DNA of 64,000 nt from Dehalococcoidia bacterium. Lineage in GTDB: Bacteria > Chloroflexota > Dehalococcoidia > Bin125. A model generated the notes under the pieces. That model saw only the letters and a list, made by a program, of their open reading frames with translations. It did no database searches and had not been told where the DNA came from. Both the position numbers and the translations under genes were made by a program. Shown one piece after another: positions 30,908 to 37,337 of this stretch (positions are counted from its first letter, which is position 1; each line of letters starts with the position of its first letter). The DNA lies in assembly GCA_965261715.1 (NCBI GenBank), contig OZ253471.1, forward strand, positions 1,162,861 through 1,226,860, written 5' to 3'.

Positions 30908-32008
30908 ATGACCCAGCGTCCGCCTGACCCGATCCCGTTCCCTCGCGACCGAGTTCAACGCGGCGCGCCTCCACCGCAGCAACAGCCGCCGCAACCATCC
31001 GGTCCGGTGATCTACTCCGCGTCGGGACAACCGATGCGCAGAGTTCAGCAAACACCGCCTGCTCCCCCACCCGCGCCGATCCCGATTCGACAGACCCCTC
31101 CGCCCTCACAGCGAACAGAGCCGGTTCAGCCAGCCGATTCCGCTGAACCGCAGAACCTACACGGACACATTGCGGCCGTCATCGACTCCACCGATGCCAC
31201 GTTTGCTCAGGACGTGGTCCAGCGCTCCCATGAGCTTCCCGTGATCGTCGACTGCTGGGCGCCATGGTGCGGCCCCTGCCGCGTACTCGGTCCAATCCTG
31301 GAAAAACTCGCATACGAGCGCGACGGCCAAGTACAACTGGTCAAGGTCAACACCGACGAGAACCCGCAGGTCGCCCAGGCTCTACAGGTCGAGGGCATCC
31401 CGGCCGTGTTTGCGTTTGTCGGTGGACAGCTTGTCAACCAGTTCGTCGGCGCACTGCCCGAGGAACAGGTACGAACCTTCTTCGATTCCCTTGTCCCTTC
31501 CGAAGCCGACATCAAAGCCGCCGAGGGCTATCGGATGATGCAGGAAAACCAGATCCCAATCGCTCGGTTGCACTTCGAGTCGGCGCTGGAAGAAGATCCC
31601 AACCACGAACCCGCTACAGTCGGTCTCGCCGCCATCCTCTCGCGGATGGGTGAGACGGAACGCGCAGCAGAGCTCGCTCGTCGCTGGCCCGATCACCCAA
31701 TGAGTAAAAGCGTCCTCATGTCATTGGAGTTCGCGGCCACACTCGATGGCTACGAACCGGACGAAGTCAGGCTCGCAGTCGCGACCGAACCAACCGATGC
31801 GCTCGCACGCTTCCGACACGGCTGCCTGCTTGCGCTCGAGGGTCAGTGGATGGAAGCGCTCGACGAGTTGCTGGAGTCGGTGCACATCGACAAGTCGGCG
31901 GGCGACGAAGTCGCTCGCAAGACGCTGCTCGGGATCTTCGGGATGCTCGGCGAGAACCAGCCGGTCGTGGCGGAGTATCGACGACGCCTGGGGCAGCTGC
32001 TGTTCTAG
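30908..32008 (+). CDS. Thioredoxin-TPR co-chaperone (YbbN/CnoX-like) with Pro/Gln-rich N-terminal extension
   Basis: WAPWCGPC, GIPAV, TPR region, C-terminal YRRRLGQLLF. Confidence 0.9.
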   Translation: MTQRPPDPIPFPRDRVQRGAPPPQQQPPQPSGPVIYSASGQPMRRVQQTPPAPPPAPIPIRQTPPPSQRTEPVQPADSAEPQNLHGHIAAVIDSTDATFAQDVVQRSHELPVIVDCWAPWCGPCRVLGPILEKLAYERDGQVQLVKVNTDENPQVAQALQVEGIPAVFAFVGGQLVNQFVGALPEEQVRTFFDSLVPSEADIKAAEGYRMMQENQIPIARLHFESALEEDPNHEPATVGLAAILSRMGETERAAELARRWPDHPMSKSVLMSLEFAATLDGYEPDEVRLAVATEPTDALARFRHGCLLALEGQWMEALDELLESVHIDKSAGDEVARKTLLGIFGMLGENQPVVAEYRRRLGQLLF

Positions 32009-32718: not shown

Positions 32719-34296
32719 ATGCACCCTCCAACCAAGTTTTCCCTCCGCAACGCCGACGGTCAGGAAATGCAGTTCCCGCCGCAACGGCCGGTGCTATTGG
32801 CGCTGGTCAAAGAAGACTGCGAGACCTGCAATCTGACCCTGCCGCTGCTCGAAGCCGTTCACCGAGCCACCGACGACGGACTCGACGTCTGGGTCGCCGT
32901 CCAGAAGAGCGACGACATTCCCATACTCAAGGACCGACACGATCTGACGATGCCGCTGCTGGACGACGACGCACTCGATCTGTCCTACGAGACCGATATC
33001 GACACGGTACCGACGCTCTTCCTCTACGACGAACAACAGAACTGCACCCTGCAGACCTTCGGCTTCGACAAGCACGAATGGCGAGAGATCGCCAGTGAAT
33101 CGATGGCGTTGGCCGGTCGTCCCGATGGCGACACCGCTATCGACTGGGACTCCTTGCCCGTGCAGCGACCTGGTTGCGGGGCTCGCAACTACGAGCCCGG
33201 CGTCTACGAGCGGCTGCAAGCGATCAAAAGTGGAGACCTGCTCTCGCGCCTCGTCGATCTCGCAGCAAGAGACGATATCCACGAGTTCATGTACGAGCAG
33301 GGCTACACCGACGGCTTCCCCGTCGTCCCGCCGACCCGCGAGCGCGTCTGGCAAATGCTCCAGGGCACAACGAGAGATCCGCAGGCAGAAGTGGCAATCA
33401 TGCCACCCAACCTGGCCCCGATCACGGTCGAGAAGATCGCGATCAACGCGGTCATGGCCGGAGCCAAGCCCGAGTACATGCCCTCAATCATCACCCTCGT
33501 CGAGATCGCTTGCACCGAGTCATTCAACATTCACGGTGTCCTCGCCACCACGATGGGCGCCACACCCGTCGGCATCTTCAACGGGCCGATTCGCGACCGA
33601 ATCGGCATGAACTACCTCCACGGCGCGCTCGGCTCGGGAAACCGAGCCAACGCAGCCATTGGCAGGGCCTTGCGACTCTGCGCCCGCAACGTCGGCGGCA
33701 GTCTTCCCGGCGGCACCGACCGTGCCACCCAGGGCGGCCCACATCGACTCACCATGAACTTCGCCGAGAACGAGGACGCGAATCCATGGGATTCCCTCGC
33801 CGTCGAACGCGGCTTCGCGCCGACCGACGATGTCGCCACCTTGATGGCGATGTCCGGCGGCCCAGCCACCATCGCCGACGAGCGCTCGCGCGACGGTCGC
33901 GGCATGGCCGGTACCCTCGCAATGTCCATGAGTTGCATGCAAGACCCGAAGTCGCCGATGGTCGACACGCTCGTCGTGCTCTCTCCGGATCACGCCGGTA
34001 TCTTTGGGCGCTCAGGTTGGTCCAAAGATGATGTGCGCGAGTGCATCATGGAAGAAACATCCATCCCGCTGAAATATCGCTTACGTTCAGAGGACGCCGG
34101 CTGCGGCCTGCCTCCCGAAATCGTCGAACGCTTCGGCGGCGAGGCGGCGCTCGATATGCCGATCGCCAAGTTCCGCGACAAGTCCAACATCATCCTTGTC
34201 GTCGCCGGCTCGTCGGCGGCGAAGTTTTCAACAATCCTCGGCGGCTGGGCCGGCGGCGTGTACTCGACCCCGACCAGCGCAAAAATTGGCGCATAA
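32719..34296 (+). CDS. Thioredoxin-like domain fused to an uncharacterised UGSC-associated domain (paralogue 1)
   Basis: CETC redox motif, cis-Pro motif TVPT, linker PGCG, then TDGFPVVPPT, TVEKIAINAVMAG, GNRANAAIGRALRL. Confidence 0.85.
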   Translation: MHPPTKFSLRNADGQEMQFPPQRPVLLALVKEDCETCNLTLPLLEAVHRATDDGLDVWVAVQKSDDIPILKDRHDLTMPLLDDDALDLSYETDIDTVPTLFLYDEQQNCTLQTFGFDKHEWREIASESMALAGRPDGDTAIDWDSLPVQRPGCGARNYEPGVYERLQAIKSGDLLSRLVDLAARDDIHEFMYEQGYTDGFPVVPPTRERVWQMLQGTTRDPQAEVAIMPPNLAPITVEKIAINAVMAGAKPEYMPSIITLVEIACTESFNIHGVLATTMGATPVGIFNGPIRDRIGMNYLHGALGSGNRANAAIGRALRLCARNVGGSLPGGTDRATQGGPHRLTMNFAENEDANPWDSLAVERGFAPTDDVATLMAMSGGPATIADERSRDGRGMAGTLAMSMSCMQDPKSPMVDTLVVLSPDHAGIFGRSGWSKDDVRECIMEETSIPLKYRLRSEDAGCGLPPEIVERFGGEAALDMPIAKFRDKSNIILVVAGSSAAKFSTILGGWAGGVYSTPTSAKIGA

Positions 34297-34360: not shown

Positions 34361-34425
34361 CTCCCCACACAATCCGCGTAACGCGCGTCGCGACCCTGCA
34401 GTCGGCGCGTTGATGGAGAGGCCCC

Positions 34426-34956
34426 ATGGTTACCCAGATCCTCGACCCCACTGACGAACGAGTGCCGATCAAGCGCTCTCTCACGCCGCGCCCCGAGGCG
34501 CTGCATGGGACGGTTGCTCTGCTCGACATCTCCAAGCCGCGCGGCGATGTCTTCCTCGACCGCCTTGAGCAGCTCTTGCACGAGCGCGCGCCGGGCGTGG
34601 AGACGCGACGCTTCATGAAGCCGACCGTCGCCAAGCCTGCCCCCGAACCGATCAAGCAAGCGATTTTGGAGGAATGCGACTTCGTCATCGAAGCGCTGGC
34701 TGATTGAGGATCCTGTACGACGTGCAGTGTGCACGACACCGTTTACTTCGAACTGCAGGGCAAGCCCAGCGTCTTCGTCGCCACTTCCGAGTTCATCAAG
34801 GCCGCCAGCCACCAGGCTGAGCGACTCGGACTCGAAGAGGTACGTCGCGTCTTCATCCCGCATCCGATGCAGGATCGCACCGATGCCGAGATGCAGAATC
34901 ACGCTGAGCGGTTTATCGACGAAATCCTCGACACCTTGATGGCGCCCGTCGAATAA
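34426..34956 (+). CDS. UGSC-family selenoprotein (Sec at UGA 34705-34707), about 176 aa
   Basis: ORFs 34426-34707 and 34729-34956 are in the same frame; read-through gives EALAD-U-GSCTTCSVHD; hairpin directly downstream. Confidence 0.9.
34714..34738 (+). promoter_or_regulatory. Candidate bacterial SECIS element
   Basis: UGU-(ACGA bulge)-CGUGCA-GUG-UGCACG-ACA; G-initiated apical loop begins 19 nt after the UGA. Confidence 0.7.
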
Positions 34957-35024
34957 CGACAGGCGCCGGATCAGGTGTCCCCTTCGTCTCGTTCCTTCGG
35001 GGACAGAATCGCCACGAACCGTCC

Positions 35025-35106
35025 ATCTCCCCCGTCTAGGGGGGATGCGGTCCACTTCCCACTCTCCCCCCTCTGGGGGGAGATGCCGCAGGCAGAGGGG
35101 GGCTCC
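35025..35106. repeat. Degenerate copy of the CCCCC/GGGGGAGATGCC palindromic repeat
   Basis: CTCTCCCCCCTCTGGGGGGAGATGCCGCAGGCAGAGGGGGG. Confidence 0.75.
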
Positions 35107-35140
35107 CATCCCCCCTACCAACAACCGACAAGGCATTGCC

Positions 35141-36250
35141 GTGCCCGGCGACTCCGACTTCTTTTCACGAATCATCGAAATCGCCGAACACGACGATGTC
35201 TATGAGTTCATGTTCGCCCAGGGAATCACCGACGGCCTGCCGGTTGTCCCGCCAACCCGCGAGCGGGTCGACCGGATGCTGGACGCCGCTCCCGAGCACT
35301 GGAACGACCCCAAGAAGGTCATCGCCGTGCTCCCGCCCAACCTCGCGCCACTGAGCGTCGAGAAGGCAGCGATCAATGCCGTCATGGCGGGCGCGAGGCC
35401 AGACTTCTTCCCCACGATCCTCGCATCCGTCGAAGCCGCCACCAGCCGAGGTTTCCCGCTCCACGCCTCAATCGCCACGACTGCCGGTCTCGCGCCGATG
35501 ATGATCGTCAACGGACCCGTGCGAGAGCAGATCGGCATGAATTGGGGTCTCAACGCCCTGGGACAGGGCAATCGAGCCAACTCAACGCTCGGAAGAGCGC
35601 TGCGATTGATGCTGCGCAACATTGGCGGAGCCAAACCAGGTGAGATCGAACAGGCGATCCAGGGCGGCGGCCACAAGTGGACACTGAGCTATGCCGAGTA
35701 CGAGGACTACTCACCGTGGGAGCCGTTCCACGTTGAGCACGGCTACGAGCCGGACGACAGCGTCGTCTCGTTGATGCCCACGACCGGCGGACCTCGAATC
35801 TGCATCGATCAAACCAGCCGCACCGCGCGCGCGCTGACCGGCTCAATCGCGATGGCCTTCCAGCAGGTCCTGAAGCCGCGTGGCCAGGTCACACCCTCGA
35901 TGTTCGTCATCAGCCCCGAGCACGCCGATGTCTACCGCGCCGACGGATGGTCGAAGGACAACATCCGCGAAGCGATCATGGAGTTCACCGCCTTGCCGCT
36001 GCGTGAGCGCCTCGAGACCCCGACGATGGGTGGTGGCATCAATGAGTATGTGCCCGAGAAGTATGGCCTGAGCGGGGACCAGCTCGACATCCCGATGTCG
36101 AAGGTGGCTCACCCTTCGTTCATTCAGATCACCATGGCCGGCAGCCATGCCGGCAAGTGGACCAGTATCTACCAGGGAATCTTCGGCGACGGCAACCCCG
36201 CTGTTCCACCGCCAACATTTGTGCCCCCGTCCGCTCTCGTCCGTTCATGA
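35141..36250 (+). CDS. UGSC-associated domain protein (paralogue 2, no thioredoxin domain)
   Basis: TDGLPVVPPT, SVEKAAINAVMAG, GNRANSTLGRALRL; GTG start chosen downstream of the repeat. Confidence 0.85.
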   Translation: MPGDSDFFSRIIEIAEHDDVYEFMFAQGITDGLPVVPPTRERVDRMLDAAPEHWNDPKKVIAVLPPNLAPLSVEKAAINAVMAGARPDFFPTILASVEAATSRGFPLHASIATTAGLAPMMIVNGPVREQIGMNWGLNALGQGNRANSTLGRALRLMLRNIGGAKPGEIEQAIQGGGHKWTLSYAEYEDYSPWEPFHVEHGYEPDDSVVSLMPTTGGPRICIDQTSRTARALTGSIAMAFQQVLKPRGQVTPSMFVISPEHADVYRADGWSKDNIREAIMEFTALPLRERLETPTMGGGINEYVPEKYGLSGDQLDIPMSKVAHPSFIQITMAGSHAGKWTSIYQGIFGDGNPAVPPPTFVPPSALVRS

Positions 36251-37337
36251 CCGAGCTGCGCGCGCGCGCCATTGACGTTGTCGACCACGACGACATCTAC
36301 GAGTTCCTCTTCGACCAACATGTGACCGACGGCCTCCCAGTCGTACCGCCAACGCCCGAGCGCGTGGAGCGCATGTTGAGCGGAACCTCCCGTCATCCGG
36401 ATAAAGTCATTGGCAAAATCCCGCCCAACTACGCGCCGGCGACGGTCGAGAAGATTGCAATCAACGCCGTCATGGCCGGAGCCGCTCCCGAGTATCTGCC
36501 CGTAATCCTGGCCGCCGTCCGAGCGGCTTCCGCGGGCCGATTTCCGCTGCATGGGACGATCGCCAGCACCGACGGCATCTCACCGATGATGATCGTCAAT
36601 GGCCCCATTCGTAAGCGAATCGGGATGAACTGGGGTCTAAATGCGCTGGGTCAGGGCAATCGAGCCAACATGACCATCGGCCGAGCCCTGCGATTGGTGC
36701 TGCGCAACATCGGAGGCGCTCGCGAGGGTGAGATCGACCAAACTGTCCAGGGCGGCGCGCACAAATTCACATTGACCTTCGCCGAGCACGAGGATGCGTC
36801 GCCCTGGCAACCGCTGCATGTCGAGCACGGATACGAGCCCGACGACAGCGTCGTCACCCTCCTGCCTGTCATCGGTGGACCAAGAATCTGCGTTGACGAG
36901 TACAGCCGCACCGCGCGAGCGCTGGTCGGCTCACTCGCGATGGGTTTCCAGCGCATCTTCAGCCCCAACGGACAGATCGGCCCATCGATGCTGGTGCTCA
37001 GTCCCGAGCACGCCAATGTCTTCCGTCGCGACGGCTGGACCAAATCCGACATCCGAGAAGCAATGATGGAGCTGACCGCGCTGCCAATCCGCGAGCGTCT
37101 CGCCACCGACCGCGTCGGCGGAGGCATCACGGCGCCAACGCTCAAGCGTGAAGGCATTACCGAAGCGGATCTCGATCAACCAATGTCGAAGGTCTCCCAC
37201 CCTCTCACATTCAATTCGCGGTCGCTGGAGCGAATGCCGGCAAGCGGACCGGAATCTATCCGGGGATCGTCCGGCGCATGGACCCGGACCACATGGACGA
37301 GTTCAGGCCCGTCTCCGCACGGATAGACCTGGCGTGA
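36247..37337 (+). CDS. UGSC-associated domain protein (paralogue 3) with 1-nt frameshift near 37200
   Basis: ATGA overlap with paralogue 2. Similarity to paralogue 2 continues in another frame after KVSHP (SHIQFAVAGANAGK) to TGA at 37335-37337. Confidence 0.8.

Follow-up and report, generated by a model that had tools for sequence, protein, structure and literature searches.

Proteins of the UGSC family, named for a motif in which selenocysteine (Sec) is followed by Gly, Ser and Cys, have been known since 2007-2008 from marine and symbiont metagenomes, as the available text of the original reports describes them (PMC1976440, PMC2398784). In the accessible portions of later work, UGSC is listed among the most abundant selenoprotein families of ocean and freshwater metagenomes, and in the Global Ocean Sampling (GOS) data 255 Sec forms were counted against 21 Cys forms (accessible text of PMC2398784). 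A thioredoxin (Trx)-like fold was proposed for the family in 2008, according to the portion of that literature available. Better understood is the PrdA/PrdB system, in which the substrate is held by a larger subunit to which a ~26-kDa Sec protein binds, its selenol attacking the bound substrate (available part of PMC11229817). Where the accessible literature names both UGSC and GrdB, it treats them as separate families. Here we describe a UGSC gene at positions 34426-34956 of a 64,000-nucleotide stretch (the window) of a Dehalococcoidia bacterium of the phylum Chloroflexota (GenBank assembly GCA_965261715.1, contig OZ253471.1, positions 1,162,861 to 1,226,860). The gene is a further member of the known family and is not new in kind. 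What is added to the family is the occurrence of four paralogues per genome in this genus, covariation in the selenocysteine insertion sequence (SECIS), a flavodoxin-like structural model, and a near-universal pairing with one partner domain.

A UGSC gene with an in-frame UGA

The elements of the gene, in window coordinates, are as follows.

34415-34421, + strand: Shine-Dalgarno-like GGAGAGG, 4 nt 5' of the ATG (direct reading of the sequence)
34426-34956, + strand: UGSC-family selenoprotein gene, 176 codons plus a TAA stop (34954-34956), Sec at codon 94 (sequence and family models)
34705-34707, + strand: UGA read as selenocysteine U94 in the motif D-U-G-S-C (conservation in paralogues and relatives, alignment with Cys)
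34719-34737, + strand: SECIS-like hairpin (covariation, frozen synonymous sites, contrast between Sec and Cys forms)

The ATG at 34426 opens a frame in which, on direct reading of the window, the TGA at 34705-34707 is the sole in-frame stop; the text around it is ...VIEALAD-U-GSCTTCSVHDTVYFELQGKPSVFV... A first-pass annotation of the window, made from the letters alone, had taken two short open reading frames (ORFs) to be one frame broken only by this TGA, and had assigned the product to the UGSC selenoprotein family. The sequence bears out the first claim. The second is confirmed by two family models that score above their cut-offs on the read-through protein, namely the NCBIfam model NF041046 'UGSC family (seleno)protein' (155.8 bits, cut-off 125) and the Pfam model PF24696 (151.2 bits, cut-off 25). 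The U/C-G-S-C motif is present at the conserved column, where the window protein reads AD-U-GSC, and D93, C94, G95 and C97 are near-invariant in a 62-sequence UGSC alignment.

The genome from which the window comes (3.6 Mb, 98% complete) contains the complete machinery for Sec insertion. A tRNA-SeC(tca), the product of selC, is present, as are selA (525 bits), selB (327 bits) and selD (355 bits), all above the cut-offs; these are the four genes for which the annotation had proposed that the genome be searched. TGA closes 524 of the 1265 stop-to-stop frames of at least 400 codons in this genome, and it is therefore an ordinary stop there and not a reassigned codon. The selD gene (L015) has one in-frame TGA of its own, and selenophosphate synthetase is probably a selenoprotein too.

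The in-frame TGA is a constant feature of the family in related bacteria. All four UGSC paralogues of the genome have one TGA at the same aligned position, in the motifs AD-U-GSCTTC, GD-U-GSCSTC, CD-U-GSCTTW and GH-U-GGCTSG. The family was found in 27 of 41 related genomes, including 24/24 genus-mates and 2/16 genomes from other families of the class, and one TGA occurs in each of the 87 family matches across those 27 genomes (87/87). An even sample of the phylum contained UGSC in 32 of 301 genomes, with the TGA in 52 of 55 matches, a tally to which two unpublished genomes (G077 and G264) contribute three rows.

Homologues that are continuous proteins show which residue stands at the UGA. The best 150 representatives of 1174 HMMER matches (E <= 0.001) include 71 proteins of 150-260 amino acids (aa), and among these full-length homologues the Sec column is occupied by Cys in 65, by Ser in 2, by Trp, Glu or Arg in one each, and by a gap in one. 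The annotation had proposed checking for an aligned Cys or Sec at the UGA, and Cys is what is found there. The single Trp is in P0002, a full-length database protein that was likely called with a code reading TGA as Trp.

Both halves of the frame appear to be translated. In 24 orthologues the codons with variable amino acids number 16/93 before the TGA and 14/82 after it, and this equality argues that the codons after the TGA are translated under the same selection as those before. Alternatively, the TGA could be a genuine stop, or could reflect a sequencing error or a lesion in a pseudogene, in which case the locus would be two small genes or a dead gene. Gene callers do treat the locus in this way: automated calling splits the window's UGSC gene in two, and most database matches are N-terminal pieces of 96-100 residues (51-53% of the query). 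The prevalence of such pieces argues that the callers end UGSC genes at the TGA. A true stop or a lesion does not account for the recurrence of the same TGA in every match from the 27 genomes, for a second half as well conserved as the first, for Cys forms that are continuous proteins, for covariation in the hairpin (see below), or for the complete Sec machinery of the genome, and we regard this explanation as scarcely credible. The three findings that the first-pass annotation had named as fatal to its reading (homologues ending at the UGA, no aligned Cys or Sec, no selABC) did not turn up. The comparative evidence shows that the locus encodes one 176-residue UGSC selenoprotein, with UGA-94 predicted to be decoded as Sec by the genome's own SelA, SelB, SelC and SelD.

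The hairpin following the UGA

The core stem of the hairpin pairs CGTGCA (34721-34726) with TGCACG (34730-34735) around a GTG loop (34727-34729). G34719 can in addition pair with C34737, with an A-A mismatch between that pair and the core stem. The hairpin begins 11 nt after the UGA, and 19 bases separate the TGA from the loop, in agreement with the annotation, which had described a CGUGCA/UGCACG stem with a GUG loop starting 19 nt after the UGA. A stem start at 11 nt and a G-U-N loop agree with the rule for E. coli fdhF.

Three kinds of comparison point to selection on this structure. First, synonymous variation is absent from the hairpin. Across the 24 orthologues, which have 83-98% nucleotide identity, 0/7 hairpin codons (codons 98-104) vary synonymously, as against 54/75 eligible codons before the TGA and 49/56 from codon 105 onward.

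Second, the stem covaries. The set analyzed consisted of the 45 nt from the TGA in 24 diverse Sec-form genes, that is, the four paralogues plus one gene per locus from other genomes; it excluded redundant genus orthologues, the fused genes L097-L101 and L103 (which have one extra motif residue), and the unpublished L084 and L102. When columns 15-22 are matched with columns 26-33, 88% of cells are paired, compared to 75.5% in shuffles (0/500 reach 88%). The stem covariation score is 0.315, compared to 0.111 for shuffles (0/500 reach it) and at most 0.122 for controls with slid partners. Double changes number 6, 4 and 5 at three of the stem pairs. In one compensatory event, a Cys-to-Trp replacement (TGC to TGG) is joined to a synonymous Val change (GTG to GTC), a pairing for which RNA constraint is the sole explanation.

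Third, the hairpin distinguishes Sec forms from Cys forms. All six core pairs are present in 22/24 Sec forms and in 3/80 Cys-form genes, and the Ser codon at +7, the loop-closing position, is AGT in 22/24 Sec forms and 1/80 Cys forms; about 65 of the 80 Cys forms in this contrast are one orthologous group, which reads S-T-H where the Sec forms read S-V-H.

Folding energy and Rfam lend no support to a SECIS element at this position. The folding energy of the hairpin region is not unusually stable when compared to shuffled sequences (z = +0.63, +0.55, -0.41 and -0.06 in four folds), and the hairpin is the minimum-energy fold only for a 27-nt piece. An Rfam scan of 34650-34800 returned no SECIS family and one row at chance level (E 3.4). 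Because its stability is indistinguishable from that of shuffles, the case for the hairpin is a comparative one. The SECIS proposed by the annotation is thus upheld by covariation, frozen synonymous sites and the contrast between Sec and Cys forms, and finds no backing in thermodynamic stability. Taken together, the comparisons show a short hairpin that is capped by a G-U-N loop, begins 11 nt downstream of the UGA and is predicted to direct Sec decoding.

The fused UGSC-partner genes left out of the covariation set (L097-L101 and L103) have open frames of 550-650 aa and read H-U-S-T-C, with one more residue ahead of the His. Visual inspection suggests that another short hairpin, CGGC-GGTC-GCCG, follows the TGA in these genes.

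The partner domain and a predicted complex

Among the UGSC representatives are fused proteins of 390-650 aa whose second domain has no Pfam match. They fit a fusion of UGSC with a domain called 'Unknown_1' that was noted in 2008 (available text of PMC2398784), and 'Unknown_1' is presumably the domain considered here. When the fused proteins were used as tblastn queries, a partner domain of ~350 aa was found to adjoin all four UGSC paralogues of the genome. In the window, three partner genes surround the UGSC gene, and a thioredoxin gene lies further upstream.

30908-32008, + strand: thioredoxin-TPR protein gene, context only (Pfam Thioredoxin 85.2 bits, TPR_20 77.2 bits)
32719-34296, + strand: partner gene with an N-terminal Trx/TlpA-like segment containing CETC, 525 aa (tblastn with fused UGSC-partner proteins)
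35141-36250, + strand: partner-domain gene copy 2, 369 aa, with a presumed GTG start (tblastn)
36247-37326, + strand: partner-domain gene copy 3, whose ATG overlaps the copy 2 stop and whose frame appears shifted near 37203

Matches of the 32719-34296 product to Trx-like domains are weak (ResA E 0.011, Thioredoxin_2 E 0.27), and homologues with the same layout carry AhpC-TSA/Redoxin domains. The ATGA at 36247-36250, in which the ATG of copy 3 overlaps the TGA of copy 2, suggests translational coupling. The C-terminal motif of copy 3 continues in another frame (window 37190-37210, near 37203), and its orthologues keep a single frame to residue 367 in G020 and to residue 353 in G001; the frame change stems from a sequencing error or from a recent lesion.

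The pairing extends far beyond this genus. Cys-form loci were collected by scanning for a peptide pattern from a 7-row alignment; the scan gave 403 matching stretches, 282 of them were confirmed, and the best 80 were retained. The partner domain is directly beside UGSC on the same strand in 79 of these best 80, a figure that overstates the independence of the loci because one peptide pattern chose them and about 65 belong to one orthologous group. The 80 loci span Alpha-, Beta- and Gammaproteobacteria, Bacteroidota, Actinomycetota and Haloarchaea, and the record titles include the culturable genera Bradyrhizobium, Methylobacterium, Sphingosinicella, Elioraea and Natrialba. In 65/80 the partner is immediately upstream and has an extension of ~130 residues with a single C-x-T-C motif, as in the window. 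Gene order and fusion thus show that UGSC is almost never encoded alone, being adjacent to, or fused with, a putative partner domain of ~350 aa, and that in the orthologous group of the window gene the partner carries an N-terminal extension with CxxC that resembles thioredoxin. Other flanking genes vary. A BKACE gene is found near 6/80 Cys-form loci, and a thioredoxin reductase (TrxR)-like flavoprotein gene such as L105:476-1489 (Pyr_redox_2, 172.9 bits) occurs at most 3 kb away from the pair in 6/80, which hints at a relay linked to NAD(P)H that is not general.

The partner domain forms a large family, with at least 6206 proteins at E <= 0.001 among 8000 candidates scored, in which fusions to AhpC-TSA/Redoxin domains are frequent. 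Neither Pfam nor NCBIfam has a model for it, and the three partner genes beside UGSC gave no Pfam match at E <= 0.001 and only chance-level rows at E <= 10. By Pfam the partner is not a pyruvoyl proprotein of the GrdE/PrdA kind, no direct comparison with a GrdE/PrdA alignment having been made. The partner profile found nothing credible among PDB sequences (best E 0.3), and an AlphaFold model of copy 2 (pLDDT, the predicted local distance difference test score, 89.2) found no fold match in the PDB. In the ESM Atlas the partner hit only unnamed clusters, and in one of these (score 0.89) 16% of the members carry UGSC. The UGSC and partner profiles show no similarity to each other (0.1-0.2%).

A complex of the two proteins was modelled with a natural Cys-form stand-in, P0003, which is 52% identical to the window protein, together with partner copy 2 of the window. 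The predicted complex has an ipSAE interface score of 0.61 (runs 0.63, 0.61 and 0.51), and the best of three controls scored 0.00. This mark is reached by 58/80 solved complexes and by 2/110 mismatched pairs, counts that are rough because the alignments were custom-made. At least 87% of contacts are common to the runs, with a partner pLDDT of at least 89. The confident part of the predicted interface comprises, on the stand-in side, residues 95-97 and 99-101 (C95 being the Sec position) and a conserved N-terminal DPT arm (residues 4-13), and on the partner side the near-invariant P37-T39, P65-P66, T114 and G162-G167. The model therefore supports binding of UGSC to the partner, with the Sec site at the predicted interface.

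Two further observations concern other sequence elements. Between the UGSC gene and the next gene (35024-35117) lie nested inverted repeats of G-runs and C-runs, for example TCTCCCCCC / GGGGGGAGA; the arrangement TCTCCCCCC-N1-5-GGGGGGAGA was found 145 times in the genome, which argues for an intergenic element of the repetitive extragenic palindromic (REP) type. Elsewhere in the genome, ARAGORN reported an unusual tRNA-like gene whose anticodon was called as two bases (tRNA-???; C1:3205950-3206033).

Relation to GrdB/PrdB and proposed function

The first-pass annotation had likened the UxxCxxC of UGSC, followed by E..G.P.V, to the Sec site of GrdB. The Pfam model GRDB (PF07355) stops just before the Sec of its own family. 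In seven full-length GRDB-family genes (420-490 bits), taken from other genomes of the phylum, the Sec context is VILTST-U-GTSTRCGAAIATELERAGIPV or a close variant; one of them, L069, reads U-G-S-C. The spacing from U to E (+15), G (+18) and P (+20) is identical in UGSC and the full-length GRDB-family proteins, and a later HP motif is common to both. A profile comparison with hhalign between UGSC (62 rows) and the seven proteins gave a probability of 96.2% (E 2.7e-9, 100 columns), and a second comparison with the full-length family gave 95.9% (E 6.1e-9, 102 columns); reversed-column controls gave at most 0.5%. UGSC residues 69-176 align with residues 323-428 of 439 in the GRDB family, Sec on Sec, and the near-invariant H146-P147 of UGSC falls on HPLG. 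A shorter, PrdB-like set gave a weaker match around the Sec (79%, E 1.6e-5).

These comparisons show, at the level of profiles, that the Sec-bearing part of UGSC (about residue 69 onward) and the C-terminal Sec region of GrdB/PrdB-type reductase subunits are homologous. The likeness drawn by the annotation thus holds as profile homology with Sec on Sec, and it fails for the second Cys (U+6), which is variable. The conserved motif of the family is U-G-S-C (UxxC); position U+6 is mostly W, C or A, also G and others, and it is W or G in two of the genome's four UGSC paralogues. No solved chain of the GrdB/PrdB type was found by sequence, since a PDB search with a PrdB-like protein of the genome gave 0 matches. 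Outside the window, the genome has three PrdB-like selenoprotein genes (L047, L048 and L049), two of them ~1.7 kb apart, in which a TGA stands right after the GRDB match in the context PV-U-P-x-C-T.

An AlphaFold model of the read-through protein, with Cys at the Sec site and the 62-row alignment, has a pLDDT of 96.4 and a predicted TM-score (pTM) of 0.90. It predicts five beta-alpha units in a row, in which Sec94 follows strand 86-92 and precedes helix 95-110, where helix 3 begins. A fold search with the model found only generic flavodoxin-like, Rossmann-like, CheY-like or sugar-binding-protein domains, among them the flavodoxin 5lji (Foldseek E 2.3e-5, query TM-score (TMq) 0.43), and the UGSC profile found nothing credible among PDB sequences (best E 0.02, a designed protein). 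As far as a fold search can tell, the model appears unlike the Trx-like fold suggested in 2008.

The predicted fold bears on the view that UGSC is a thioredoxin-type thiol/selenol oxidoreductase that works on its own, as a general antioxidant or disulfide reductase, with neighbours that are merely co-regulated redox genes. The UxxC motif suits such a role, as do the Trx-TPR gene and the CxxC domain nearby; a 2026 review, in its available text, places UGSC among proteins with a Trx-like fold (PMC13188914), and the accessible selenoproteome literature suggests such a function. The predicted row of five beta-alpha units speaks against it, however, as does the lack of any thioredoxin among the structural matches listed and of any Trx-type Pfam match to UGSC at E values up to 10. 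Near-obligate adjacency to, or fusion with, a single domain would also be unexpected for a general reductant. We therefore consider a free-standing reductant unlikely.

Because UGSC shares homology in its Sec region with GrdB/PrdB, is paired or fused with the partner, and has a predicted interface with it, we lean towards a reading in which the UGSC selenoprotein is the small redox subunit, carrying the Sec, and the partner the large substrate-binding subunit of a heteromeric enzyme. The arrangement would parallel the docking of PrdB on PrdA. Sec94, facing the conserved surface of the partner, would serve as nucleophile or reductant and would form a selenenyl-sulfide with Cys97 as the resolving residue. 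The CxxC domain on the upstream partner would then re-reduce the selenenyl-sulfide, with electrons coming ultimately from a thioredoxin system. In this scheme we infer that the proteins of the window bind each other, which way the electrons run and what chemistry takes place.

UGSC might instead be a maturation or regulatory subunit, involved in processing or redox gating of the partner, and not supply the catalytic nucleophile. There is precedent in the PrdH-mediated processing of PrdA, which needs PrdB binding (available part of PMC11229817), and the predicted complex would suit this role. The window also has three partner genes for its one UGSC gene, and in many partner genes a Trx-like domain takes the place of UGSC. 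However, the costly Sec is kept in 52/55 matches of the phylum sample, which argues for direct chemistry at the residue, and the Sec site itself is within the predicted interface. A maturation or regulatory role consequently seems rather improbable.

Several results weigh against the two-subunit enzyme, besides the limited independence of the Cys-form loci noted above. The Pfam GRDB model does not match the UGSC protein at E <= 0.1 or at E <= 10, and UGSC is accordingly a relative of the Sec-bearing region of GrdB/PrdB and not a member of GRDB. Profiles of the partner and of GRDB-family alignments show no similarity (hhalign 0.1-0.2%), and the partner alignment has no invariant Cys; for these two reasons a pyruvoyl chemistry like that of Prd is unsupported. 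A TrxR-like gene accompanies only six of the 80 Cys-form loci, and the wider neighbours of those loci give no clue to a substrate. Binding by the window's own UGSC protein is something that we infer from the stand-in, and the function of UGSC is still given as unknown in the accessible 2026 literature (PMC13188914).

A broader proposal, which we put forward tentatively and with somewhat less than even confidence, is that UGSC and its partner might represent a class of Sec/Cys-dependent reductases with two subunits that is widespread in bacteria and haloarchaea and has so far gone unrecognised. The small subunit would share an ancestor with the Sec domain of GrdB/PrdB. The large subunit, whose fold has no solved relative, may carry a catalytic group at the surface facing the selenol (T114, P37-T39, P65-P66). 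If this is true, an abundant aquatic selenoprotein family labelled 'function unknown' would be a substrate reductase and not a thioredoxin-like antioxidant. The value of the present locus lies in its context, namely a Sec domain related to GrdB/PrdB, a near-obligate partner family and a predicted interface holding the Sec site; this context turns 'function unknown' into a testable hypothesis of a two-subunit enzyme.

Comparison with known systems places the locus as follows. With the UGSC family (NF041046/PF24696) it shares the D-U-G-S-C motif, a length of ~176 residues and the alternation of Sec and Cys at one column, with no essential difference; the window gene is a member. Trx-fold CxxC reductants of the TlpA/ResA type have no sequence match to UGSC, and the order of secondary structure in the UGSC model differs from theirs. 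However, such a domain takes the place of UGSC in many partner proteins, which suggests that both feed electrons to the same partner. The PrdB-like selenoproteins of aquatic bacteria (motif U-P-x-C) have a weaker profile likeness to UGSC around the Sec; unlike UGSC they are ~440-460 aa long with a long C-terminal extension, and in the tblastn matches of this genome they do not adjoin the partner domain. GrdB and PrdB (PF07355 GRDB) differ from UGSC by a ~340-residue N-terminal GRDB domain that UGSC lacks, and no grdA, prdA or prdH context was seen among the window ORFs scanned with Pfam. What UGSC has in common with them is a hydrophobic strand, then U, G/P-x-C/S, a helix, E..G.P, a strand and a later HP(L)G; and UGSC resembles PrdB in being a small Sec subunit whose gene adjoins that of a larger protein, which it is predicted to bind.

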